This document shows, one piece after another, positions 1,731 to 35,070 of a stretch of 64,000 bases of DNA. The stretch is from the NCBI RefSeq assembly GCF_053078305.1, contig NZ_CP166879.1; one strand, written 5' to 3'. A program made the position numbers and the translations under genes. Position 1 is the stretch's first letter. Every line of letters starts with the position of its first letter. Below the pieces are notes generated by a model. It did not search any database, had not been told where the DNA came from, and saw nothing but the letters and a program-made list of their open reading frames with translations.

Positions 1731-1750
1731 TGGCCCTGCTGTCTTTGAAC
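1731..1750. repeat. Degenerate copy of the ileX 3' end (candidate attL remnant)
   Basis: tggccctgctgtctttgaac versus the tRNA 3' end tggcccctgctggacttgaac (10535-10555). By eye there is one indel and about three substitutions. Confidence 0.5.
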
Positions 1751-1803
1751 TGAATGCATATTTTGTTGATAAATAAAGATTATGTGTTTTTGATTTTCGT
1801 TTT

Positions 1804-1827
1804 GTATGCCTTTTTGTATGCCTTTTT
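1804..1827. repeat. 24-bp arm-type repeat (2 x GTATGCCTTTTT), left copy
   Basis: gtatgcctttttgtatgccttttt is identical to 10389-10412. Each copy lies tens of bp inside a putative island junction. Confidence 0.7.
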
Positions 1828-1985
1828 TGAAAAAGATACCCTTGTTGTTTGATCGTCGATAACGGGTATCAATGTGCACATGCAAATCGATGGCGTTTAT
1901 GTGTGCGCTGTCGAACGTTTGAAAATGGTTTTAGGGCGGTTTTAATGCTGGTTGATGTGGCGCTCTGTGGCGCTCGTTTTGGTGT

Positions 1986-2066
1986 GCTGGTGGCGGGGGT
2001 CGAACCCGCATACATGATCAGCCTGTACAGGCTGGCACCGACTCTACCCGTTGAGCGTACACCAGC
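1986..2066 (-). ncRNA. tRNA-like RNA 1 (canonical acceptor, D and T arms; aberrant anticodon arm; no encoded CCA)
   Basis: Minus strand has a 7-bp acceptor GCTGGTG/CACCAGC, U8-A9, and D arm GCTC-AACGGGTA-GAGT. T arm is GCGGG-TTCGACC-CCCGC. The central arm is the palindrome CAGCC-TGTACA-GGCTG (6-nt loop) flanked by extra nucleotides. Confidence 0.45.
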
Positions 2067-2086
2067 AAAAAAGCGATGAGGTTGTT

Positions 2087-2185
2087 GGCTGCTGGTGGTG
2101 GGGGTCGAACCCACATAAACATCCCGCTTTCTGGAAGCTATACAAGCGGACGCCGCTTTACCGATTAAGAGTACACCATACAGCC
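2087..2185 (-). ncRNA. tRNA-like RNA 2 (diverged paralogue of RNA 1 with extended acceptor-like helix)
   Basis: T arm GTGGG-TTCGACC-CCCAC. Terminal helix GGCTG..TGGTG / CACCA..CAGCC. UA plus a GG-containing D-like loop. Long central hairpin TCCGCTT...AAGCGGG. The 5' end coincides with the start predicted from the promoter at 2193-2221. Confidence 0.4.
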
Positions 2186-2192
2186 AGGTAAA

Positions 2193-2221
2193 ATAGTAAT
2201 CATGCGTTATGTGCGGGTAAA
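2193..2221 (-). promoter_or_regulatory. Candidate sigma70 promoter for the tRNA-like RNAs
   Basis: On the minus strand, TTTACC (2221-2216), a 17-nt spacer, then TACTAT (2198-2193). The predicted start near 2185-2186 is the first base of tRNA-like RNA 2. The weak -35 suggests activator dependence. Confidence 0.4.
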
Positions 2222-2260
2222 GTCTGTTTCGTCTGGTAGCACCAGATGAACGGGTATCAT

Positions 2261-2330
2261 TATTTCACCTGATTTCACGTGATTTCGCTTAATTTCACAA
2301 AAATCACCTTCTTTCACCTTCTTTCACAAA
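2261..2330. repeat. Seven helically phased TTTCAC (minus strand GTGAAA) repeats, about 10-bp period
   Basis: Seven consecutive decamers: tatttcacct, gatttcacgt, gatttcgctt, aatttcacaa, aaatcacctt, ctttcacctt, ctttcacaaa. They lie between the Mor-like gene and the promoter at 2193-2221. Confidence 0.7.
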
Positions 2331-2461
2331 AAACAAATCATCATTAAAGCGCCTGATTCGCTCTCTGATGCGTTTTGGTGTTTTTGTGGCGTCCGTGATG
2401 CCCTGAAAGGGGATTTTTGCGATAGCGGCGCAAATATAACGGTTGCTGCTGGTATCTGTGG

Positions 2462-2869
2462 TTAGTCTTGCGTGATTTTATTGGCGTGCTTCTTTCTCAG
2501 TCGTCGTATGATGTCGTAAATATGGGTTTCGGATATTGCGTACTCTTTGCGTAATGCCTGCAATTTTTCGCCGTTATCCCACCTGTAGTAAATCTCGTAT
2601 TCGCGCAATGCTGCGAAAAGTGATCTGCCTGTTGGAAGGTAAAGACTTCGCCCACCAGCATAGAAGGCGATTGCAGCGACAACCCGCTTTGCGATTCTGA
2701 AAGCGTCTGCCTCCTCCATGCCATTACGGGTAAGTTCCGCTACTGAATGCGACACGATATCAGCAAGCGAATCACACCATGCATCACCTGGTTTATCTCC
2801 GTTGTCTATGGCGTCGATGAATTTAAGCCGCTCGATGTCTTTTGGTACGTGATGGGTTTGCTCGTTCAT
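2462..2869 (-). CDS. Mor-family (phage Mu middle-operon-regulator-like) transcriptional activator
   Basis: 135-aa ORF. The C-terminal part (...YLPTGRSLFAALREYEIYYRWDNGEKLQALRKEYAISETHIYDIIRRLRKK) resembles the Mor/C HTH region from memory. Confidence 0.6.
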   Translation of the reverse strand: MNEQTHHVPKDIERLKFIDAIDNGDKPGDAWCDSLADIVSHSVAELTRNGMEEADAFRIAKRVVAAIAFYAGGRSLYLPTGRSLFAALREYEIYYRWDNGEKLQALRKEYAISETHIYDIIRRLRKKHANKITQD

Positions 2870-2982
2870 CCGGTAGCCTCTTGCGTTGGTGTATCTGGTC
2901 CTACCAGTTTAATTTAACGTCGCAATAAAACGATATACACGCACACAATCAGAAAAGCCGTCTGACTGTTCCGGTCCCGTGC

Positions 2983-3255
2983 TTACTTCTGGTAGCTACG
3001 CCAGATTTTTTTACATCTCCCTCCTATCCCCATTTCTGCGTAAGTGCGGTTTACTGCTTTCCTCAGGTCTGCGTAGTTCTCCTCTGGCGGCTCCGGTGGC
3101 CTCTGTGCCTTCCCGTAACATTCTGCCCTGCGCATTGCCACCCGTTCGCGTTCCCTGTCAGTCTCCACCAGCATCATCACTTCAGCCCATCGCGCCGCCG
3201 CTCTCCGGTAAAAGCCCTTCGCCTCCAGCTCTTCCGCTATGCTGTCATGTACCAT
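2983..3255 (-). CDS. Small PerC/Pch-like (or ANR-like) transcriptional regulator
   Basis: 90-aa ORF with motif LEAKGFYRRAAARWAEVM, which I associate with PerC/Pch-family activators. GAGGGG Shine-Dalgarno upstream. Confidence 0.45.
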   Translation of the reverse strand: MVHDSIAEELEAKGFYRRAAARWAEVMMLVETDRERERVAMRRAECYGKAQRPPEPPEENYADLRKAVNRTYAEMGIGGRCKKIWRSYQK

Positions 3256-3265
3256 CGTTCACCCC

Positions 3266-3676
3266 TCAGAACGGAATATTGTCACCGTAAGGGTCATCGC
3301 CTCCCACTGGTGGCTGATTACCCTGTGTGCCTGTGGTCCTGCGTCTGTTGCCACCTGGTCGCGCCGTTTTCGCACTGATTACGCTGTCTGCAATGACCTG
3401 ATAACCCTGCCGCGTTTCCCCGTTCTGTCCGGTCCACTGACTGACCTGCATCACACCGGATACGCTGATTACGTTGCCTTTCTCATGTCCTGCCAGTTGG
3501 TCGGCCTGTTTGCCAAATGCCAGGACAGACAGCCATAACGTTGCCTGCCCGTCCTGCGCCTGACTGCATGGCAGCGATACCGCCATACGTGCCAGCGTCA
3601 TCGGTGTGCCCTTACTGGTCTGTTTTGTCTGCGGGTCGTCAATCAGTCGCCCGTAAGCTGCTATCTGCGCTGTCAT
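3266..3676 (-). CDS. Single-stranded DNA-binding protein (island-encoded SSB)
   Basis: 136-aa ORF with an OB-fold-like N-terminal part, a Gly/Pro-rich linker and a C-terminal acidic tip ending DDPYGDNIPF (compare the SSB DDDIPF tail). Confidence 0.8.
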   Translation of the reverse strand: MTAQIAAYGRLIDDPQTKQTSKGTPMTLARMAVSLPCSQAQDGQATLWLSVLAFGKQADQLAGHEKGNVISVSGVMQVSQWTGQNGETRQGYQVIADSVISAKTARPGGNRRRTTGTQGNQPPVGGDDPYGDNIPF

Positions 3677-3777
3677 GATTCCACCTCTCCGGTTTTAACG
3701 TTGATGGTTGTTACCTGTTCCGCTTCTGCAATCTCCCGCTCTGTCAGCGTGGTAAAGTTTGCCGCTGCTGTGCTCAT
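3673..3777 (-). CDS. Possible 34-aa micro-ORF translationally coupled to ssb
   Basis: MSTAAANFTTLTEREIAEAEQVTTINVKTGEVES. Its TGA overlaps the ssb ATG (ATGA). No clear Shine-Dalgarno. Too short for the ORF track. Confidence 0.2.
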   Translation of the reverse strand: MSTAAANFTTLTEREIAEAEQVTTINVKTGEVES

Positions 3778-3916
3778 GAATGCACTTATCAGCCAGGGGG
3801 CTTTCGCGTGTCTTTCTGCCGTGTTGTGGCCCTTCGTTCATGAGCAAAACACTTAAATAAAACTAAAGTGATTTTCTGTGTTTTCGTGCTGCTCTGCTCT
3901 GTGTTTTTTTGCCGTT

Positions 3917-4120
3917 TACTCACCACTACTCACTTTTTTTACTCACTTTTTGGAATCGCTCACTTCGTCTCACCTGAGATTTTTGGTGTTTTTATGTGTG
4001 TGTTTTATAAGTGGTTTTTTACTACTCACTTTTTTGCCTATATACAGGTGAGAAAGTGAGTAATTTTGTTAATTTTTTGTAAAATTACTCACTTTACTCA
4101 CTTTTGCTCCTCACTTTTTT
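3917..4120. repeat. Iteron array, putative island replication origin
   Basis: At least 8 direct copies of (T)ACTCACTTT(T), for example at 3927, 3940, 4023, 4086, 4095 and 4109. Inverted copies (gtgagaaagtgagta) lie at 4048-4062. AT-rich spacers. The array abuts the stop codon of the RepA-like gene. Confidence 0.7.
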
Positions 4121-5516
4121 ACAGCGGTACTACGTCATCGCCGTCAATGCGTATAGTCTCGTCTTTCTCCAGTTTTGCTAACCATCGCCGCATGTTTTTC
4201 ACGTCATACCCAAGCCGTTTCATGTCGTCGCGCAACAACGAAATAGTGCACTTGTCGCCGTGCTGTGTGCGTGACCGGATGCAGCCCCATAGCGCGGTAT
4301 GGTTTTCCGTCTTGTTGCCAGCCTCCTCGATGCGCTCCACTTCAACGGGATGACGCGGCTTATCCACCACAACCAGAGACGTGATTAACTCCCCGTCAGC
4401 GTCGGTAAAAAGCTCAACTACCCGCAAATCGTAGGCAGCTTCTTTGAGTTCCTCTGCGTCCTTCATTTTGGTACATGAGATAACCAGCGCTTCGCTTCCT
4501 GCGTCCTCCCTGCGTATCCGGTATTCAGCATCCAGTGATGCACGAAATGCACTGGAACCACGCGCCCCCTTTGTTTCATCCTTGCCGGAATGGTGAACCA
4601 CCAGCACCGTTGCCCCTGTGCGCCGTTTCAGTTCGTCACACCCACGGATAAACGCCCCCATATCACGGGAATCATTTTCATCATTGCCACCAAAGCAACG
4701 CGCCAGCGTATCCAGAATAATCATGCGTACAGGTTTACCCGTTTCCCGTTCCACCTGGCGGGCAGCGATAACCATTTCATCAACATCAAGCGGGGCAGCC
4801 GGAAAGATGGGGCGGTTTACCAGATACAGATTTTTCACCTGCTCACCGTGCACAACCTCCCAGGCTTTTACACGACGCGGAACGCCGATACCGCCTTCAC
4901 CAACCACATAGAGAACAGCGCCATGCGCCACCCTGCGGCCTCCCCACTGGCGGCCCGTGGAAACGTGACACGCCCACGAACCCGCAAGGAACGATTTATA
5001 GGAACCGCTCGCCCCGTATATGCTGCACAGCGATACCGCCGGAATAATCCCCTTAACCACGTAATCCAGTTGCGTGTCATATCCGGCAGAACCAACGCTC
5101 ATCGGTAGCTTTGTTTTGCGCTGGTGGCCTTTTTCTTCCTGCTTTTCCCCGCGCTCCCGTTCCAGATATTCGCGCCAGTTCTCCCGCTTCTGGCTGTGCA
5201 TCCCATCGGGGTAGTAATTCGCATCCTGTACGCCTGCCGCTGCCAGTTTTTGCGCGATGGCATTAATATTTGATGGTCTGATATGGCTTGCTTTGTACAG
5301 CCGGACGCAATAGCGCCCCTCGTCAATGATTTTCGTGTCTGCCAGTTCTGCCAGTTGCTGCTCCCCAAGCCATACAGGTGGCACATTATCGCCAGCAAGT
5401 CGGCCCTCCTGCTCCTGCCACTGCTTCGCGTGTGCCCAGGCATCACTACCCACAAAAATAATGACCTCGGTCATTTTGTCGTAAGGCTGTTTTTTTAAGT
5501 TCGGTGCGCTTTTCAT
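4119..5516 (-). CDS. RepA-like RecA-fold replicative helicase/initiator (AAA_25-type)
   Basis: 465-aa ORF. Walker A-like GASGSYKS, Walker B MIILD, VLVVHHSGKD motif typical of RSF1010 RepA-like ATPases. Its start overlaps the upstream ORF stop (ATGA). Iterons lie immediately downstream. Confidence 0.7.
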   Translation of the reverse strand: MKSAPNLKKQPYDKMTEVIIFVGSDAWAHAKQWQEQEGRLAGDNVPPVWLGEQQLAELADTKIIDEGRYCVRLYKASHIRPSNINAIAQKLAAAGVQDANYYPDGMHSQKRENWREYLERERGEKQEEKGHQRKTKLPMSVGSAGYDTQLDYVVKGIIPAVSLCSIYGASGSYKSFLAGSWACHVSTGRQWGGRRVAHGAVLYVVGEGGIGVPRRVKAWEVVHGEQVKNLYLVNRPIFPAAPLDVDEMVIAARQVERETGKPVRMIILDTLARCFGGNDENDSRDMGAFIRGCDELKRRTGATVLVVHHSGKDETKGARGSSAFRASLDAEYRIRREDAGSEALVISCTKMKDAEELKEAAYDLRVVELFTDADGELITSLVVVDKPRHPVEVERIEEAGNKTENHTALWGCIRSRTQHGDKCTISLLRDDMKRLGYDVKNMRRWLAKLEKDETIRIDGDDVVPL

Positions 5517-5812
5517 TTCTTACCCCTGAATGCGTTAATCATCTTTTTCATCTTCTGTATTTTTGCCAGTGCCTTTACGTTGCTGGTGGGCACGTTACGC
5601 GGTACCGCCTGCACCAGAGAAAAATCACGGGAAAACTGATAAACAGGCATCACGCAGTCATATTCGTAGCCTTTACGGCGGTAGGTGACGCACCGCCCCG
5701 CCACGCCCTTAATCATTACCGTGCCGCCGTACTGGTCGCGGTAAATATCACCGCGCTTAAATTCAGGGCGAGGCTTGCCGCTGGCAGTTAAGCCAGTTTT
5801 TTTCATGTTCAT
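5513..5812 (-). CDS. Small basic protein, function unknown (possibly DUF4222-like)
   Basis: 99-aa ORF whose stop overlaps the replicase ATG, so it is operonic with the replicase. Confidence 0.5.
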   Translation of the reverse strand: MNMKKTGLTASGKPRPEFKRGDIYRDQYGGTVMIKGVAGRCVTYRRKGYEYDCVMPVYQFSRDFSLVQAVPRNVPTSNVKALAKIQKMKKMINAFRGKK

Positions 5813-5885
5813 TTTTTTATCCTTTGTTCTGGTCAGTTACGCCGTTGCTGCATAAATGCGGTTAGCGGTGCCTGTCGTTGCCTTA

Positions 5886-6200
5886 TCACGAATGGCGATA
5901 ATCAGCACTGATATCTCCGTTACGACAACGCCAGTTGTACACCTCCACAACCTCACTGAATCCGGCCACAAGTTCAGCCGTAACAGCGATGGAATCGCCC
6001 AGGCTGCGCAGTTCGTCCATGTCAGGATCAATGCTGTCACTCATGCCAGAAAGTAAGCGCCCTGTGATAGCCAGCCCTTCAAGCAGTTTGCGGGCGTAGA
6101 AATCAGCATCATCAAACATCGCTCTCGCTTCCCGTGCGTCAGCTGCTTTTATGGTTGTAACCAGTTGTTCAAGTATTCTGGTGTTACACACATCACGCAT
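5886..6200 (-). CDS. Hypothetical acidic protein translationally coupled to icd-like 1
   Basis: 104-aa ORF. Its ATG lies 5 nt before the icd-1 stop (ATGCGTGA, 6200-6193), the same geometry as P1 icd-ant coupling. Confidence 0.5.
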   Translation of the reverse strand: MRDVCNTRILEQLVTTIKAADAREARAMFDDADFYARKLLEGLAITGRLLSGMSDSIDPDMDELRSLGDSIAVTAELVAGFSEVVEVYNWRCRNGDISADYRHS

Positions 6201-6363
6201 GACTCACCCCCTCACGAATAAGGGTGACAAAAATCAGATGGGTGTGCGGAAGTTGTGCGCGTGCTTCGTGCTCAGTGGCAGCGGTAACGGTGAATATTGC
6301 AATGCTGCCTGTCAGGCACTGCATAAAGCGCCAGACAAAGTAAGGGCGTGCGGATACAGCCAT
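6193..6363 (-). CDS. Icd-like (host cell-division-inhibitor-like) small protein, copy 1
   Basis: 56 aa MAVSARPYFVWRFMQC...TVTAATEHEARAQLPHTHLIFV.... AGGAG lies 8 nt upstream of the ATG at 6363. The ORF track shows an in-frame 164-aa extension that I interpret mainly as RNA. Confidence 0.65.
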   Translation of the reverse strand: MAVSARPYFVWRFMQCLTGSIAIFTVTAATEHEARAQLPHTHLIFVTLIREGVSHA

Positions 6364-6371
6364 GTGAAAGG

Positions 6372-6586
6372 CTCCTATGTTTGAGGTAAGGAGTCTCGCT
6401 ACTACGCTGCTAAACATGGTGGCGAGACGTAACAGGGTTAGCAGACTGGCAACATAGAAACCAGCGAGCGCAAAGGCTCCCCCGTTACGCCCCGCCATAA
6501 TGCGGGTATGGGTAGGTTTACGGACACAAAAAAACCGCATATCGGAATGTAAGCGGCTGTCCGCTATGTTATTCAGGCTGCTAAAC
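6372..6586 (-). ncRNA. c4-like antisense RNA cassette 1 (targets, antisense core, SD-overlapping target)
   Basis: Plus-strand text: targets ctatgtt at 6564-6570 and 6375-6381, and ctgctaa at 6578-6584 and 6407-6413. Antisense aacatag at 6451-6457 and ttagcag at 6438-6444. Exact reverse complements. The distal target overlaps the icd-1 SD. Confidence 0.6.
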
Positions 6587-6649
6587 CCGGTCGCCATGTG
6601 GGTGACTCCGGCATCATACAGCCCGAAAGAAGAGGCGATCAACATGTTT

Positions 6650-6820
6650 TTATCCATGTGATGCCTCCTGACGGATACGGGCGACAAAAATCAGATGTGC
6701 GTGCGGCAGCCGGGCGCGTGCTTCGTGCTCAGTGGCAGCGGTAACGGTGAATACATCGATGTTACTGTGGTGGCACTGCATAAAGCGCCAGACAAAGTAA
6801 GGGCGTGCGAATACAGCCAT
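6650..6820 (-). CDS. Icd-like small protein, copy 2
   Basis: 56 aa MAVFARPYFVWRFMQCHHSNIDVFTVTAATEHEARARLPHAHLIFV.... AGGAG lies 8 nt upstream of the ATG at 6820. Confidence 0.65.
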   Translation of the reverse strand: MAVFARPYFVWRFMQCHHSNIDVFTVTAATEHEARARLPHAHLIFVARIRQEASHG

Positions 6821-6828
6821 GTGAAAGG

Positions 6829-7043
6829 CTCCTGTAGTGAAATTAAGGAGTCTCGCTACTACGCTGTCAAACATGGTGGCGAGACGTAACAGGGTTGACA
6901 GACTGGCACTACAGGAACCAGCGAGCGCAAAGGCTCCCCCGTTACGCCCCGCCATAATGCGGGTATGGGTAGGCTTACGGACACAAAAAAACCGCATATC
7001 GGAATGTAAGCGGCTGTCCGCTGTAGTATTCAGGCTGTCAAAC
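6829..7043 (-). ncRNA. c4-like antisense RNA cassette 2
   Basis: Targets ctgtagt at 7021-7027 and 6832-6838, and ctgtcaa at 7035-7041 and 6864-6870. Antisense actacag at 6908-6914 and ttgacag at 6895-6901. The backbone is nearly identical to cassette 1. Confidence 0.6.
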
Positions 7044-7106
7044 CCGGTCGCCATGTGGACGACTCCGGCATCATACAGCCCGAAAGAAGAGGCGATCAAC
7101 ATGTTT

Positions 7107-7295
7107 TTAAGCATGACTCACCCCCTGACGAATACGGGCGGCGAATACAGCGACACAACCGGACGGGCAACGGTTACGCGCTTCGCGTTCCGTCCAGGCG
7201 GTTACGTGGATGATTTGACGTTCTGACGTGCCAAAGGTGATAAAGCGCCAGATAAAGGCGGTTTGAGAATGTACGAGGGCAGGGGTAGTAGCCAT
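7107..7295 (-). CDS. Icd-like small protein, copy 3 (diverged)
   Basis: 62 aa MATTPALVHSQTAFIWRFITFGTSERQIIHVTAWTEREARNRCPSGCVAVFAARIRQGVSHA. AAGGAGG lies 8 nt upstream of the ATG at 7295. Confidence 0.6.
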   Translation of the reverse strand: MATTPALVHSQTAFIWRFITFGTSERQIIHVTAWTEREARNRCPSGCVAVFAARIRQGVSHA

Positions 7296-7303
7296 GATGG
7301 CAG

Positions 7304-7514
7304 CCTCCTTTATCGTTGGGATATACCCACCGCTGGAGGTTCCAATCTCGCTGGCGGTGGACTGCACGGAGTTGGAACTACTGGCGATAAAGGAAACCAG
7401 CCTGACCGAAGTCAGCCCCATACAGCCCACCATTGATAAGGTGTGCGTGTGCGCCGATACAAAAAAAGACGCGTTCGGCGTCTGTATCGCCTTTATCTCC
7501 AGCGGGGTTCCAAT
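7304..7514 (-). ncRNA. c4-like antisense RNA cassette 3 (diverged backbone, same architecture)
   Basis: Targets cctttatc at 7490-7497 and 7307-7314, and gttccaa at 7507-7513 and 7339-7345. Antisense gataaagg at 7386-7393 and ttggaac at 7372-7378. Strong hairpin GACGC-CGAAC-GCGTC plus U7 at 7461-7482. Confidence 0.55.
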
Positions 7515-7825
7515 CCCGACACCCGTTTTATGAGGTGCGCGGGAATCATAGCCATTTTTGATACTGGCGATCAACTGATTTTCTCTGGCGGGTATTTGGC
7601 GCGGATGCCTGTTACCTGTGGCAATATACACACGACTGTATACAATACACATCGGTTAACTCCTTATATTCCGTTGATGGCCCGTAGTGTTATTGCATTG
7701 CGGGTATTTTTTACCTGCCGTTAATTGAATGCGGCAAGGCATCACGACGGTTAACCCGTTTTGCATAACGTGAGGCGTTTTATTTTCTGCGCTGGTGGCT
7801 TTTATATTTCACATATGGGAATTTA

Positions 7826-8029
7826 TTATTCCTGCTGATAACGCTCCTCTACTTTCTTCTCAAGCCATGATTTCACCTCATCCTCAAACCAGCCAACGCG
7901 GCGTAATCCACGCTTAAAACCAGGAATAAATTCACCAGCCTTAACCATTGTGTCAATGCTCGTTGTACTAAGGCGAAGAAGATTTGCGACTTCTCGTTTT
8001 GTAAGGATTTTCTTTTCTGTAATGTTCAT
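7826..8029 (-). CDS. AlpA-family phage/island HTH regulator (excision/transcription control)
   Basis: 67-aa ORF. ...LTKREVANLLRLSTTSIDTMVKAGEFIPGFKRGLRRVGWFEDEVKSWL... matches the AlpA/Phage_AlpA pattern from memory. Confidence 0.8.
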   Translation of the reverse strand: MNITEKKILTKREVANLLRLSTTSIDTMVKAGEFIPGFKRGLRRVGWFEDEVKSWLEKKVEERYQQE

Positions 8030-8121
8030 ACTTTGCGTTCCTTTTGTTTCAGGCGCTAACTTGCCTAAACTTGTTCAAGGATATGCAAACACGGTAAAAG
8101 CTGGCATTGCGGAATATTACG

Positions 8122-8145
8122 AAAAAAGCCCGTAATATTACGGGC
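8122..8145 (-). terminator. Rho-independent terminator after the int-orf298 unit
   Basis: On the minus strand, GCCCGTAATATTACGGGC followed by TTTTTT, about 20 bp after the orf298 stop. Confidence 0.7.
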
Positions 8146-8166
8146 GGTCATATGTTCAGAAGTCTG

Positions 8167-9063
8167 TCAGTCGTCAACGTCTGCAAGCCACTTACCTATG
8201 CATGTTGGTGTGGCACCGATATCAACGCCTGCTTTGGTTAGTGCGCGGCTTAACTTGCTGTGACCGTTTTCAAGCGCCCTTCGTGGGTTTGACGCCTCTT
8301 CTTCTCCGGCTATAGCGGTGATTAGTCTTTTGATAACTCTGGCCTGAAGATTGGTTGTTTTCTTTGATGGGGGTGGTTTATTGATGTTTAATTCATCCAT
8401 GTTTTCAATAGAAGCGGTACGCCCTCCGTTTATGGCTAAATCTATCTCACTTCTGGAAATAAAAATATCGTTACGTGATATATCCCATCCCTGTAATAAA
8501 ATCGCAGCTTTAAAATCATCCTCGTCATCGTTATCGATTATCTGAATGTATTTAGTATTTGTTGTATCGTGAAATGATAATCTTTCAATGTCTGCGCTGT
8601 TAGCCTTTACATTAAGCAATCCATCAGCTTTAACATATATTTCTTTTGCGGGTGTTATTATTTGTGCGTTTTTTATCTCTGGCTCATCTTCAGCAAAAAT
8701 ATTCATGCTGAAATAATCACCATATGATGAGTAATGATAGTTTATGTTGAGTCCTGCATGTGCATAATAAAAAACATCTATTGGAGTGAGTAGCTTATTT
8801 ATAGATGTGGCATCAATGATTACATTGCAATATTCATTTGTGTAATGCTGGTATAATGTTTTATTAGCACTGATAAGCTCAGGCTTTACCCCTTCATAAT
8901 ACTTTAATGTCAGTTTTTCATTTATATTAATGCGATACAAAAAACGCATCCTCCTCGTAGCGATGAAATGAAGCAAATCATCAACGTCACACTCAAGCCT
9001 TCTGGCTGCCTTGTCTAACGGGTAATAATCCCTTTCAGGAAGGTTTATTTTTTTGTTTGCCAT
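8167..9063 (-). CDS. AT-rich orphan protein of unknown function (island cargo)
   Basis: 298-aa ORF starting 4 nt after the integrase stop. Its central part is visibly more AT-rich than neighbouring genes. I recognise no motif. Confidence 0.6.
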   Translation of the reverse strand: MANKKINLPERDYYPLDKAARRLECDVDDLLHFIATRRMRFLYRININEKLTLKYYEGVKPELISANKTLYQHYTNEYCNVIIDATSINKLLTPIDVFYYAHAGLNINYHYSSYGDYFSMNIFAEDEPEIKNAQIITPAKEIYVKADGLLNVKANSADIERLSFHDTTNTKYIQIIDNDDEDDFKAAILLQGWDISRNDIFISRSEIDLAINGGRTASIENMDELNINKPPPSKKTTNLQARVIKRLITAIAGEEEASNPRRALENGHSKLSRALTKAGVDIGATPTCIGKWLADVDD

Positions 9064-9067
9064 GCCC

Positions 9068-10348
9068 TTAACCGTTAACCATTTTTAACCCACGATAGCC
9101 ACCCGTGGCGCTTACGCTCCCGCTGGCAGCTGCCTCTACAAAATCCCCCCACCACGCCATTAACGGGCGTCGCTGCTCGAGATAGGTTGAGCGGTTGTAC
9201 GCACGGCGAACCTCGTTTTTATCTATGTGTGACAATGCCGCCTCGATTACGTCAGAGTCAAAACCTTGCTCGTTAAGTGCGGTACTTGCTATTGAGCGCA
9301 AGCCATGAGCAACCAGCCGCCCACTAAAACCCATGCGTTTTATTGCTGCGTTTGCTGTTTGTACGCACATATGGCGCTGCGGGTCGCTGTTGTGTGGAAA
9401 TATAAACTCACGATGCCCGCTTATTGGCTTCATGACGTCCAGAATGGCTAACGCCTGCTTCGAGAGTGGTATTACGTGTTCCCTGCGTTGTTTAAGTCTG
9501 TGCTCTGGTATGCGCCATTCCTTCACCTCAAAATCAATTTCACACCAGCGCGCGCCAGCTGCTTCACCTGGTCGGCAAATTGTCAGTAGCTGCCACTCAA
9601 TGACCAGCCGCGTTTGTCGTTCCACCCGTGCCGTTGCCAGCTTCTGCATAAATTCGGGGAGTTCTTCAGGGCGTATTGCTGGCATGTTCTTAACGCTTGG
9701 CGCGTTAAATGCCTTGCTTATCTCTGATGCCGGATTCGCGGCAATCATTCCGGTATTAACGGCGTAATACATGACCTCATTGATTCGCTGTGCTGTCCTT
9801 CTGACGGTATCTAATTTCCCCTGGGCGGCTAATGGTTTTAATGCTTCGATGAAATTGCTTGCTATCAGGTCTGCTATTGGCCTGTTACCGACTGACGGGA
9901 ATACATTACGCTCCAGCGAACGCCATATATCGCGTAGTGTATCTTCTGCGAGTCCTTGCCCTTTTTTAAGTTCAAACCAGAGCGTAGCTACATGCCTGAA
10001 GGTGTTCTCTCTCTTCATCACTTCACTAAGGCGCTGTTTCTCTCTGTGCTCTTTTGGGTCAATGCCACCAGAAAGAAGCGCTCTGTATTCGTCTTTTATC
10101 TTTCGCGCGCCCGCAATGCTGATTTCTGGATATGCGCCAATGCTTAACATGGCCCGTTTTTTTGTGTGTGGCTTGTAGTAGCGGTAACGCCACAAGCAAG
10201 AGGCGCTTTTGTGCTTAATCACCAGTTCCAGCCCTTCGCCGTCAGTGATGAAAAGGTCCTTTTTTTCGTTGCTGGCTTTTCGCTGGAGGCTTTTTATCGT
10301 TGCGGGTGATAAAGACTTAACTTTTTTGGTCACCGGTTCAACTCCCAT
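9068..10348 (-). CDS. P4-type tyrosine integrase (DUF4102 N-terminal arm-binding domain plus catalytic domain)
   Basis: 426-aa ORF. Catalytic-type motifs ICRPGEAAGARW, HGLRSIAST and LSHIDKNEVRRAYNRSTY (R...HxxR...H...Y). Lies next to a tRNA gene. Confidence 0.9.
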   Translation of the reverse strand: MGVEPVTKKVKSLSPATIKSLQRKASNEKKDLFITDGEGLELVIKHKSASCLWRYRYYKPHTKKRAMLSIGAYPEISIAGARKIKDEYRALLSGGIDPKEHREKQRLSEVMKRENTFRHVATLWFELKKGQGLAEDTLRDIWRSLERNVFPSVGNRPIADLIASNFIEALKPLAAQGKLDTVRRTAQRINEVMYYAVNTGMIAANPASEISKAFNAPSVKNMPAIRPEELPEFMQKLATARVERQTRLVIEWQLLTICRPGEAAGARWCEIDFEVKEWRIPEHRLKQRREHVIPLSKQALAILDVMKPISGHREFIFPHNSDPQRHMCVQTANAAIKRMGFSGRLVAHGLRSIASTALNEQGFDSDVIEAALSHIDKNEVRRAYNRSTYLEQRRPLMAWWGDFVEAAASGSVSATGGYRGLKMVNG

Positions 10349-10388
10349 AAGCTGTTAAAGGCATATGCAAATCTGTGTTTTTTCCGGC

Positions 10389-10412
10389 GTATGCCTTTTT
10401 GTATGCCTTTTT
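10389..10412. repeat. 24-bp arm-type repeat, right copy
   Basis: gtatgcctttttgtatgccttttt is identical to 1804-1827 and lies 41 bp upstream of the integrase start codon. Confidence 0.7.
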
Positions 10413-10435
10413 AATCTTGCTTATACGCTATCAAA

Positions 10436-10450
10436 CTGGCCCAAACTGAA
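10436..10450. repeat. Candidate right junction motif ctggccc-a-aactgaa
   Basis: Shares both heptamers with 1730-1754 (ctggccc-11 nt-aactgaa). Confidence 0.35.
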
Positions 10451-10454
10451 CAAT

Positions 10455-10492
10455 AAAAAACCCGCGTTCCTTGTCTGGCGCGGGTTTGCTTT
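10455..10492 (-). terminator. Rho-independent terminator downstream of ileX
   Basis: On the minus strand, AAACCCGCG-ccagacaaggaa-CGCGGGTTTTTT. Confidence 0.75.
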
Positions 10493-10531
10493 GTTTAACT
10501 TGCCGTAACTTGTCTTTACTTGGTGTCGATT

Positions 10532-10607
10532 TGGTGGCCCCTGCTGGACTTGAACCAGCGACCAAGCGATTATGAGTCGCCTGCTCTAACCACTGAGCTA
10601 AGGGGCC
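10532..10607 (-). tRNA. ileX: tRNA-Ile2 (anticodon CAU, lysidine-modified)
   Basis: 76-nt GGCCCCTTAGCTCAGTGGTTAGAGCAGGCGACTCATAATCGCTTGGTCGCTGGTTCAAGTCCAGCAGGGGCCACCA. Full cloverleaf, encoded CCA, located between mug and yqjH as in K-12. Confidence 0.93.
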
Positions 10608-22908: not shown

Positions 22909-23063
22909 GTCGGATGCCTGGCGTTGTCCACGATTGCGTAGGCCGAATAAGGCGTTCACGCCGCATCCGGCAATCAACGCCTGATGCGACGCTTGCGCGT
23001 CTTATCAGGCCTACAACTGTCGTTGACGTGTAGCCGGATAAGGCGTTTACGCCGCATCCGGCA
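22909..23063. repeat. BIME (cluster of REP elements)
   Basis: Three REP-like units (ggccgaataaggcgttcacgccgcatccggca, gatgcgacgcttgcgcgtcttatcaggcctac, gccggataaggcgtttacgccgcatccggca). Confidence 0.75.
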
Positions 23064-30886: not shown

Positions 30887-30966
30887 CCGGAAAGCGGTTC
30901 ACAGATCTCGCTTCGTACATGGCAGGCCTATTGACGCTGTTGTTTTTTCAACCTAGAGTAAAGGAA

Positions 30967-31108
30967 CAAGGGTAAGGGAGGATTTCTCCCCCCTCTGATG
31001 AGTTGTTAGTAAGTCGGGAAACTTAACAGTAACAACACAACCAGTATGATGACGAGCTTCATCATAACCCTTTCCTTCTATAAGGCCCCTTCCTCGGGAG
31101 GGGCTTTC
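30967..31108 (+). ncRNA. sibE: Sib antisense antitoxin RNA (ends approximate)
   Basis: Fully overlaps ibs on the opposite strand. GC-rich hairpin ggcccct...aggggc plus T-rich tail near 31084-31108. Confidence 0.55.
31006..31065 (-). CDS. ibsE: Ibs type I toxin, 19 aa MMKLVIILVVLLLLSFPTY
   Basis: Hydrophobic 19-aa ORF below the track cutoff. K-12 order is yqiK-ibsD/sibD-ibsE/sibE-hldE. The D versus E assignment rests on position only. Confidence 0.7.
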   Translation of the reverse strand: MMKLVIILVVLLLLSFPTY

Positions 31109-31341
31109 CCGTTTCAGCCCCTTGCTGACTCCCCGATTGTTGATGAGCGCCGGACCCCGCGCAACGCTTTCCCTGAAGCAGTTTTGCCTTCCCCGAGCGG
31201 TCACGCAAAACGCTGCAACGTCCTGAGCATTTGCACCTTTTAGCGGAACGCAGATATAAAAAATCCCCGGCTTTTTGGGCCAGGGATATGCGTTAATGAA
31301 ACCTTCTTGACGCTGATTTTTTTTCAACCTAAAGTAAAGGA

Positions 31342-31483
31342 ACAAGGGTGAGGGAGGATTTCTCCCCCTCTGATTGGCTGTTAATAAGCTGCGAAACTTA
31401 CGAGTAACAACACAATCAGTATGATGACGAGCTTCATCATAACCCTTTCCTTATACAAGGCCCCTTCTTCGGGAGGGGCTTTC
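31342..31483 (+). ncRNA. sibD: Sib antisense antitoxin RNA (ends approximate)
   Basis: Same architecture as the first copy. Confidence 0.55.
31381..31440 (-). CDS. ibsD: Ibs type I toxin, 19 aa MMKLVIILIVLLLVSFAAY
   Basis: Second copy, 375 bp from the first. Confidence 0.7.
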   Translation of the reverse strand: MMKLVIILIVLLLVSFAAY

Positions 31484-34920: not shown

Positions 34921-35070
34921 GCTTATTCTCAGGGCGGGGCGAAATTCCCCACCGGCGGTAAATCAACTCAGTTGAAAGCCCGCGAGCGCTTTGGGTGCGA
35001 ACTCAAAGGACAGCAGATCCGGTGTAATTCCGGGGCCGACGGTTAGAGTCCGGATGGGAGAGAGTAACGA
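34921..35070 (+). promoter_or_regulatory. FMN riboswitch (RFN element) in the ribB leader
   Basis: gcttattctcagggcggggcgaaattccccaccggcggtaaa...ccggggccgacggttagagtccggatgggagagagtaacga carries the conserved RFN helices and lies upstream of ribB. Confidence 0.9.

Follow-up and report, generated by a model that had tools for sequence, protein, structure and literature searches.

Few bacterial RNAs are known to mimic tRNA without decoding, among them transfer-messenger RNA (tmRNA, SsrA) and the bacterial Y RNA YrlA. Characteristic of tmRNA are a free CCA end, the G3:U70 alanine identity pair, the lack of a D stem, a tag reading frame and pseudoknots, while in YrlA the ends leave from the anticodon-stem side to form a helix that binds Ro (Rsr), so that the acceptor stem is the closed end. 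Phage T4 produces two stable RNAs, species 1 and 2 (rnaC/rnaD), with tRNA-like features and no established function. Here, we analyzed a 64,000-nucleotide stretch of contig NZ_CP166879.1 from RefSeq assembly GCF_053078305.1 (the window; positions are counted from its first letter), in which two tandem tRNA-like genes, W1 and W2, lie on the minus strand within a genomic island. Our data indicated that this locus very probably belongs to a genuine, conserved family of RNA genes that was acquired from Mu-like phages. We found no account of such a tRNA-like RNA family in the literature, and annotation pipelines already mark the loci as odd tRNAs.

The two genes and their parts are as follows, read from the sequence except where another source is given.
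2087..2185, minus strand: W2, the first tRNA-like RNA of the array, with a type-B backbone
2153-2119, minus strand: W2 central hairpin, from the fold of the central arm, with a stem of about 10 base pairs (bp) and a loop of 14 nucleotides (nt) at 2143-2130
2114-2098, minus strand: W2 T arm, GTGGG-TTCGACC-CCCAC
1985..2066, minus strand: W1, the second tRNA-like RNA of the array, with a type-A backbone
2066-2060 and 1992-1986, minus strand: W1 acceptor stem of 7 bp, GCTGGTG with CACCAGC
2059-2058, minus strand: W1 T8 and A9, followed by one extra C
2056-2041, minus strand: W1 D arm, GCTC-AACGGGTA-GAGT (as RNA, GCUC-AACGGGUA-GAGU)
2039-2016, minus strand: W1 extended central arm, GGU[GC]CAGCC-UGUACA-GGCUG-AUC
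2034-2019, minus strand: the palindrome within that arm, CAGCC-TGTACA-GGCTG
2015-2010, minus strand: W1 variable loop
2009-1993, minus strand: W1 T arm, GCGGG-TTCGACC-CCCGC
1985, minus strand: W1 A73, with CACC next and no encoded CCA
2372..2408, minus strand: a degenerate partial third copy (3′ acceptor strand and trailer ...CGCCACAAAAACACCAAAACG; repeat family D3, 65% identity)

The acceptor, D and T arms, the central hairpin and the missing CCA described in the original prediction were all found at their minus-strand positions. The central arm of W1 is a bulged hairpin of about 8-9 bp with a loop of 6 nt, or of 4 nt when an extra U-A pair is counted, and its stem is preceded by five extra nucleotides, so that no 7-nt anticodon loop is possible. 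In W2, the D arm is retained and the terminal helix is split, GGCUG-UA-UGGUG pairing with CACCA-G-CAGCC (5+5 bp); its long central arm looks like a partial duplication of W2's own D-arm segment. The degenerate third copy is also kept in related islands.

Over the window, ARAGORN called only ileX and neither W1 nor W2. The Rfam tRNA model RF00005, run in Infernal, scored W1 at 35.0 bits and W2 at 20.6 bits against a gathering threshold of 29, and bypassed the central arm in both, as a 26-nt insert in W1. No normal tRNA with a 7-nt anticodon loop was thus recovered at either gene, in line with the original prediction. Neither W1 nor W2 has a 5-bp anticodon stem with a 7-nt loop carrying U33 and an anticodon, nor a 7-bp acceptor followed by an unpaired N73-CCA (W1 has 7 bp and A73 and then CACC; W2 has 5+5 bp); the tRNA genes of E. 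coli encode CCA. Both RNAs do carry the D arm with G18 G19 and the T arm with a UUCRA loop, with invariant key nucleotides. A genuine tRNA, or a tRNA with a misfolded anticodon arm, was ruled out by ARAGORN, Infernal and the central-arm folds. In identical E. coli islands, the Prokaryotic Genome Annotation Pipeline (PGAP) labels W1 as tRNA-Tyr and W2, like other members, as tRNA-OTHER; the tRNA-Tyr label of W1 (RefSeq islands L001, L201, L202 and L203) is a mis-annotation set off by the GUA in the 6-nt loop. Likening the loops to Tyr, Asn or Gly anticodon loops was likewise rejected as numerology, since the resemblance varies among members and the commonest type has only a tetraloop. The Rfam models for tmRNA (10.5 bits against a gathering threshold of 47), permuted tmRNA (13.5 against 47) and YrlA (13.8 against 69, with a match that only straddles the W2/W1 junction) did not match either, and hits to these (10-14 bits) or to any other Rfam family were sub-threshold noise.

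Pattern scans of viral contigs and metagenomes yielded about 30 distinct sequences after removal of real tRNAs; the viral matches L010, L013, L020, L021 and L025 were left out as real tRNAs within tRNA arrays. In an alignment of 29 sequences, 88% of cells were paired and both sides changed in 13 of 19 pairs, values matched by none of 500 shuffles, and registers slid by 1-3 columns paired at 38-55%. A set gathered independently through the neighbouring gpG protein was 94.7% paired and added covariation in the T stem. As the RNAfold z-scores of single sequences were unremarkable (-1.2 and -1.8), the evidence for structure is covariation and not folding energy. The excess of G.U over A.C cells (31 vs 14) favours the tRNA-sense strand as the functional one. 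Invariant or near-invariant positions comprise the tRNA-core nucleotides U8, A9, A14, A15, G18 G19, A21, U48 and the T loop, and both E. coli and Alishewanella sequences keep G18 G19, the T loop, U8, A14 and A15/U48 unchanged. Covariation is also seen outside a 7-bp acceptor, at pairs 2:96 and 3:95, which would involve positions 73-75, and family-wide in the pairing of positions -1 to -3 with 73-75. In types A, B, D and K the terminal helix measures 9-10 bp; a single-stranded NCCA is absent. In every member the central arm is one closed hairpin that ends either in a tetraloop such as UCCG, UUCG, GAAA or CUUG or in a loop of 10-14 nt. Within the family, W1 is atypical in its helix of 7-8 bp, and W2 in the internal loop of its helix and its unusually long central arm.

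A covariance model, R1, was built from the family alignment, with W1 and W2 among the training sequences. Its backbone reads GUG-UA-C, a D arm UUAAyyGGUAAAG, a closed central hairpin, (U)UAU, a T arm GYGGG-UUCGACC-CCCRC and the extended terminal helix. W1 and W2, both in the training alignment, scored 84.0 and 80.1 bits (E about 1e-18 to 1e-19), and relatives outside the training alignment scored 68.8-89.9 bits. Overall, members ranged from 62 to 93 bits, real tRNAs with the same T arm reached at most 46 bits, and the top non-members scored 52 bits (L226) and 46 bits. The ileX gene of the window had no match to R1.

With a relaxed T-arm pattern, 93 of 121 matches in genome contigs were tRNA-Leu genes, which, taken with the A15/U48 pair, suggests descent from a tRNA-Leu. 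Judged from their sequences, family members cannot decode and most cannot be charged, because the anticodon arm is a plain hairpin and the acceptor helix in most members spans about 10 bp without NCCA. This bears on the proposal that the RNA is matured, given a CCA tail and aminoacylated, probably with leucine, and serves as a non-decoding amino-acid donor or synthetase manipulator. The tRNA-Leu-like core and T arm suit such a role, as leucyl-tRNA synthetase ignores the anticodon, and so do the 7-bp acceptor and A73 of W1, its U-rich leader suited to RNase P, and the ACCA encoded by L226, a distant borderline sequence (52 bits). We consider it decidedly improbable, however, given that the helix is paired through positions 73-75 family-wide, base 73 varies (A, C, U or G), no CCA is encoded and no aminoacyl-transferase gene lies nearby. 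The earlier suggestion of substrates for the CCA enzyme was not borne out either, as pairing of the terminal helix past position 73 predicts no CCA addition.

The idea of decayed cargo tRNAs fared no better, in view of the covarying helices, the invariant core across genera and the retention of the genes in many prophages. Functionless remnants of cargo tRNAs, or a genuine tRNA-Tyr as annotated by PGAP, could draw on that label, on the GUA in the W1 loop and on T-loop variants (A58C) in some prophages. Such an origin is nevertheless highly improbable for a family that shows compensatory covariation in three helices and is kept across genera, and in which W1 has no room for a 7-nt anticodon loop, ARAGORN is silent and Infernal bypasses the arm.

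The home of the family was located in Mu-like prophages. W1 is 86% identical to a tRNA-OTHER of Mu-like prophages, which is encoded in the roughly 120 bp that separate the head-morphogenesis gene F from the virion-morphogenesis gene G, on the strand opposite to both; W2 resembles a type-B backbone at the same F/G position in other E. coli Mu-like prophages. Sp18 of O157:H7 Sakai, in which the element lies between ECs_4971 and ECs_4972, is among the carriers, and 229 of the 5,426 complete E. coli genomes (about 4%) contain the F-G region. Mu-like loci were also retrieved through the gpG protein and not through the RNA; among the 32 viral loci whose gpG relative was at least 61% identical, 31 had the element directly upstream of G, in antisense orientation. 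Phage Mu, in which the F and G genes overlap, lacks the element, as does the related phage L265, in which the F stop codon runs straight into the ribosome-binding site of G; these phages show that the element is an accessory gene gained by insertion, a moron. A search of plasmids returned Mu-like insertions only. Many O157 prophage copies are unannotated by PGAP although the DNA is present. On L212, a Mu-like metagenomic contig, two tRNA-like genes (753-833 and 119-197, both on the minus strand) flank a gene of about 173 codons, which indicates that phages can also hold more than one copy; the second copy is diverged (41.8 bits) with an altered T arm.

The element diverges much faster than the genes on either side of it. 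Between type-A and type-B1 phages, nucleotide identity is 96% in G, 87% on the F side and 67% in the element; phages with G genes 95-97% identical in nucleotides have elements only 63-69% identical that differ in backbone type, and even phages with 98-99% identical G proteins bear different types. Islands with nearly identical flanks can carry wholly different B-type central arms (19 nt vs 29 nt). Either frequent replacement or diversifying selection would account for the divergence at the F/G spot. T-loop changes were seen in the prophage copies L243, L245, L251, L253, L256 and L258, with L239, L240 and L272 also noted; A58C (UUCGCCC) is non-canonical and may mark decay, and G57A (UUCAACC) is tRNA-compatible.

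Three family members were found outside phages, each facing the trailer end of a CRISPR (clustered regularly interspaced short palindromic repeats) array in convergent orientation.
L051 4057-4137, minus strand: Klebsiella spallanzanii copy, beside a type I-E array with a 20-nt gap
L091 4454-4530, plus strand: Alishewanella aestuarii copy, beside a type I-F array
L206 6356-6432, plus strand: near-identical metagenomic copy, beside a type I-C array in place of I-F

Homology between L091 and L206 ends 6 nt past the gene, with the I-F CRISPR-Cas locus following in one and the I-C locus in the other. Such positions may reflect a defence-island hotspot, an att-like (attachment-site-like) role or a functional link. 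Neither an integrase gene nor a partial direct repeat was present beside the chromosomal copies in the DNA available, and no Klebsiella-type copy was found in E. coli. The W1 hairpin CAGCC-UGUACA-GGCUG resembles the repeat hairpin of the E. coli type I-F system, but mimicry of CRISPR repeats by the central hairpin was rejected as coincidence, the copies beside I-F, I-E and I-C arrays being unlike their neighbouring repeats.

One alternative is an antisense or transcription-interference regulator, in which the RNA or its promoter would oppose the late operon at F/G and the type-matched satellite copies would pair with late mRNA of a helper phage and hamper expression of its head genes. In phages the element invariably runs opposite to F and G and lacks a terminator, and the chromosomal copies, too, converge on a transcription unit, there a CRISPR array. 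The A-like and B-like backbones in the island correspond to two helper lineages, and perfect matches reach 29-30 nt. A cis-antisense RNA is complementary whatever its sequence, however, so the invariant G18 G19, T loop, U8, A14 and A15/U48 are left unexplained, the ribosome-binding site of G is not covered by the RNA, and the long central loops have no complementary target beyond chance 9-10-mers in the phage or window DNA available. We regard this role as unlikely. An antisense seed within the long central loops was discarded separately, as comparison with the helper genome, with the window and with each phage's own locus gave only self-hits and chance 9-10-mers.

Putative signals for expression of the array lie upstream of W2 and between the two genes.
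2193..2221, minus strand: predicted sigma-70 promoter of the array, with -35 TTTACC at 2221-2216, a 17-nt spacer and -10 TACTAT at 2198-2193
2067..2086, minus strand: conserved U-rich spacer AACAACCUCAUCGCUUUUUU between the copies, from a comparison of upstream sequences

The start is predicted at about 2186-2185, the first base of the W2 terminal helix. Across the family, the -10 box lies 5-8 nt ahead of the first paired base in 14 of 16 contexts, from which it follows that no leader would be made in single-copy contexts; the TACTAT of W2 lies at the family distance, yet a generic consensus promoter scan did not call it. W1 has no promoter and is preceded by the U-rich spacer, which is also found between the copies of L229 and L271, whose arrays have three. 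Island arrays take the form W2-W1, W2'-W1 or, with three copies, W2'-W2-W1, with a predicted promoter on the first copy only, and the chromosomal family copies terminate in U tracts. Since the spacer at 2067..2086 carries no promoter, W1 would have to be excised from a W2-W1 precursor. The suggestion that these RNAs are substrates of RNase P accordingly survives in part: it is plausible only for freeing the promoter-less downstream copies of arrays, and not in single-copy contexts, for which no leader is predicted.

The island extends from about 1731 to 10607, with ileX at its end. Reading from ileX, its genes encode an integrase, an AlpA-like regulator, ash, and Icd-like genes with three C4 RNAs and isrK, then DUF4222, followed by a RepA-type helicase, SSB, PerC, the Mor-family activator and W2-W1. 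The Mor-W2-W1 module also occurs in islands with other replication modules and integrases, at mdtP and between yicC and dinD, so the pair is conserved in related islands. An ileX-like core (about 1731-1752) and integrase arm-type repeats (1792-1827) both lie beyond W1, and the two island types examined agree in this placement of the arm-type repeats, indicating that the tRNA-like genes are internal cargo and not att sites. Together with the failure of R1 to match ileX, this upholds the earlier statement that the pair are not simple duplicates of the ileX att site, a candidate we ruled out on the same grounds; no sign of attachment sites for other integrases, which had also been proposed, was seen in the island.

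These positions also weigh on a role as a recombination or integration landmark, in which the element would serve integrases as an attB-like target or mosaic exchange as a homologous linker. Several boundaries coincide with the element: the Alishewanella-type homology halts 6 nt past the gene, with I-F or I-C CRISPR-Cas beyond; the Klebsiella copy lies 20 nt from the trailer end of its type I-E array; homology between island types also stops about 10-15 nt past W1; and the mosaic identity of the phages shifts across the element. We nonetheless hold a landmark to be quite unlikely, because no integrase gene or partial direct repeat adjoins the chromosomal copies in the DNA available, the integrase arm sites beyond W1 in both island types leave W1 as internal cargo, and a DNA landmark needs no covarying helices, RNA tetraloops or private promoter.

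Two features near the array link the island to a putative helper, a Mu-like phage.
2462..2869, minus strand: Mor/C-family activator gene, directly upstream of the array (Pfam Mor, 3.5e-23)
2261..2340, minus strand: GTGAAA-type repeat block, given as context and not part of the RNAs

In tblastn comparisons with phages, the island Mor-family protein was closest to the C-like late activator of the very Mu-like phage that bears the type-A RNA (47% identity, vs 31% to Mu C); no homologue beyond E. coli was found at the sensitivity of the search. For a 22-mer of the repeat block, at 2332-2311, the single match in 44 kb of the helper falls 35-56 bp inside the left end, the position that the pac site has in Mu, and 100 shuffles gave no match. 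Evidence of a Mu-like prophage was present in at least 7 of 13 island-bearing genomes vs a 4% base rate, the prophage F-G region being matched directly in three of the seven and the evidence in the other four being an extra W1-type match elsewhere in the genome that may belong to such a prophage. The island has genes for an integrase, a RepA-type helicase, SSB and an AlpA-like protein, and structural genes are absent. The C-like activator, the left-end look-alike and the co-occurrence with prophages make the island a good candidate for a satellite of Mu-like phages; we found no description of a satellite of Mu-like (transposable) phages in the literature. The JNEC-KY203 genome holds at least two island copies.

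By analogy with the pRNA of phi29, the RNA could instead be a helper-specific cofactor of assembly or packaging that works with lineage-specific head proteins, the satellite versions exploiting or redirecting them. The phage element does sit among head-morphogenesis genes, the island element lies about 130 nt from the left-end (pac-like) look-alike, and the satellite has one copy per helper backbone type. Against this, 98-99% identical G proteins occur with different backbone types, Mu and L265 assemble without such an RNA, and the chromosomal copies have no phage genes nearby, which renders the cofactor improbable.

The reading that we tentatively prefer, without granting it an even chance, is that W1 and W2 are small stable tRNA-shaped RNAs from the Mu-like F/G junction that act as inert tRNA-mimic decoys; decoys for tRNA-targeting defence nucleases were among the possibilities raised in the original prediction. 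The island would have acquired the tRNA-like genes from Mu-like phages as a tandem array. A private sigma-70 promoter would set the transcription start on the first paired base, and in the island a single promoter would drive W2-W1, with tRNA-type processing at the U-rich spacer freeing W1. The folded RNA might then act in trans as an inert tRNA mimic that occupies a factor recognizing the body or the elbow of tRNA. The most plausible such factor would be a nuclease or sensor, of an immune system or a competitor, that targets tRNAs, and the mimic would neither be consumed nor disturb translation. The rapid replacement of the element, notably of its central arm, would reflect an arms race, and the island, as a probable satellite, would carry one copy per helper backbone type (A-like W1 and B-like W2). 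The invariant tertiary nucleotides suggest recognition by a binder of the tRNA shape, as a pure antisense or DNA-level role would not keep them, and the private promoter suggests an RNA independent of phage regulation. A decoy or sponge is favoured by the conserved body and elbow, the closed ends, the private promoter, the fast turnover and the multi-copy arrays typical of conflict loci. Considered alone, the decoy step is possible though doubtful.

Several points weigh against decoys. The commonest type (A) has a mere tetraloop on its central arm, so the variable arm need not carry specificity, and arm turnover could arise through relaxed constraint and phage mosaicism and not from an arms race. 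No tRNA-targeting system is known to be inhibited by a mimic that does not decode, and the countermeasure known from phages is the provision of substitute tRNAs. The atypical W1, with its 7-8 bp helix and A73, could be matured and given a CCA end, and the A58C copies suggest that the fold is dispensable in some lineages. The pattern of one copy per helper type agrees with a role specific to the helper no less well than with a generic decoy. In its boldest form, which we consider rather unlikely, the proposal makes these the first RNA-only counter-defence (or defence) determinants on a tRNA chassis: sealed mimics, neither cleavable nor chargeable, with which Mu-like phages would blind tRNA-directed nucleases of immune systems or competitors, and which would be carried as multi-variant arrays in the first recognized satellites of transposable (Mu-like) phages.

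Further features of the island and window were recorded. On the minus strand, the tRNA-like pair is flanked by two identical, directly repeated copies of an 11-mer, TGATACCCGTT (2249-2259 and 1861-1871), with an inverted partial copy (AAGGGTATC) at about 1833-1841. The 11-mer is similar to the TTGATACCGAT repeats, possible transposase-binding sites, that occur at either end of the helper Mu-like phage. Iteron-like repeats, TACTCACTTTTT (3921-4120), directly 3′ of the RepA-type helicase gene are probably the replication origin of the island. At 6197-7540, three tandem units of about 457 bp each contain a C4 antisense RNA (6415-6502, 6872-6959 and 7350-7437), an unusual triplication of a P1/P4-type immunity module, and an isrK-like RNA (7462-7538) follows the C4 units and overlaps the Icd-like and ash reading frames. 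Two Sib RNAs, an FMN riboswitch and naRNA4/REP, all RNAs of the E. coli chromosome, were found in the window (30931-31455, 34921-35069 and 22941-23011), confirming the chromosomal setting.

The family occurs in about 4% of sequenced E. coli genomes, including the enterohaemorrhagic E. coli (EHEC) reference Sakai (Sp18), either unannotated or as tRNA-OTHER. Whatever its function, the wrong tRNA-Tyr label inflates tRNA counts by one spurious tRNA-Tyr in the genomes concerned, the family is a ready marker for a clade of Mu-like prophages, and the island family that carries it is a testable candidate satellite of Mu-like phages. If the RNAs were decoys, the struggle of phages, satellites and defence systems over tRNAs would gain a further, RNA-based level.

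Compared with canonical tRNA, and especially tRNA-Leu, the family shares the cloverleaf arm order, U8, A14, G18 G19, the T loop UUCGA and the 5-bp T stem, and the tRNA-Leu genes of many bacteria have in common with it A15/U48 and the T arm GYGGG-UUCGACC-CCCRC preceded by UAU. It differs from tRNA in having no 7-nt anticodon loop, long variable arm or CCA, in the one extra nucleotide after A9, in a terminal helix of about 10 bp paired past position 73, and in a predicted start at the helix itself. The tRNA-like domain of tmRNA is similarly an anticodon-less tRNA mimic with a GGUUCGA-type T arm, but none of the tmRNA hallmarks (free CCA, G3:U70, missing D stem, tag reading frame and pseudoknots) is seen in the family. 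YrlA is likewise a non-decoding tRNA-shaped RNA that keeps the D/T elbow, whereas the family, sealed at the acceptor end, has the reverse topology. YrlA members have been reported in phages too (PMC4201824). T4 species 1 and 2, compared by description only, belong to a tRNA operon of a lytic phage and are co-processed with tRNAs, whereas the family is a stand-alone antisense gene of temperate transposable phages. Phage tRNAs set against tRNA-cleaving defences (T5 against PARIS, and retron/Septu-type nucleases) are, like the family, tRNA-shaped genes of mobile elements; Septu is reported to cleave tRNA-Tyr (PMC13096335). The phage tRNAs that defeat such defences decode and replace the cleaved ones, whereas the non-decoding family RNAs could act by occupancy only. 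Collectively, among these systems the family is a tRNA-like non-coding RNA with a new, sealed topology and a new home in transposable phages and their putative satellites.

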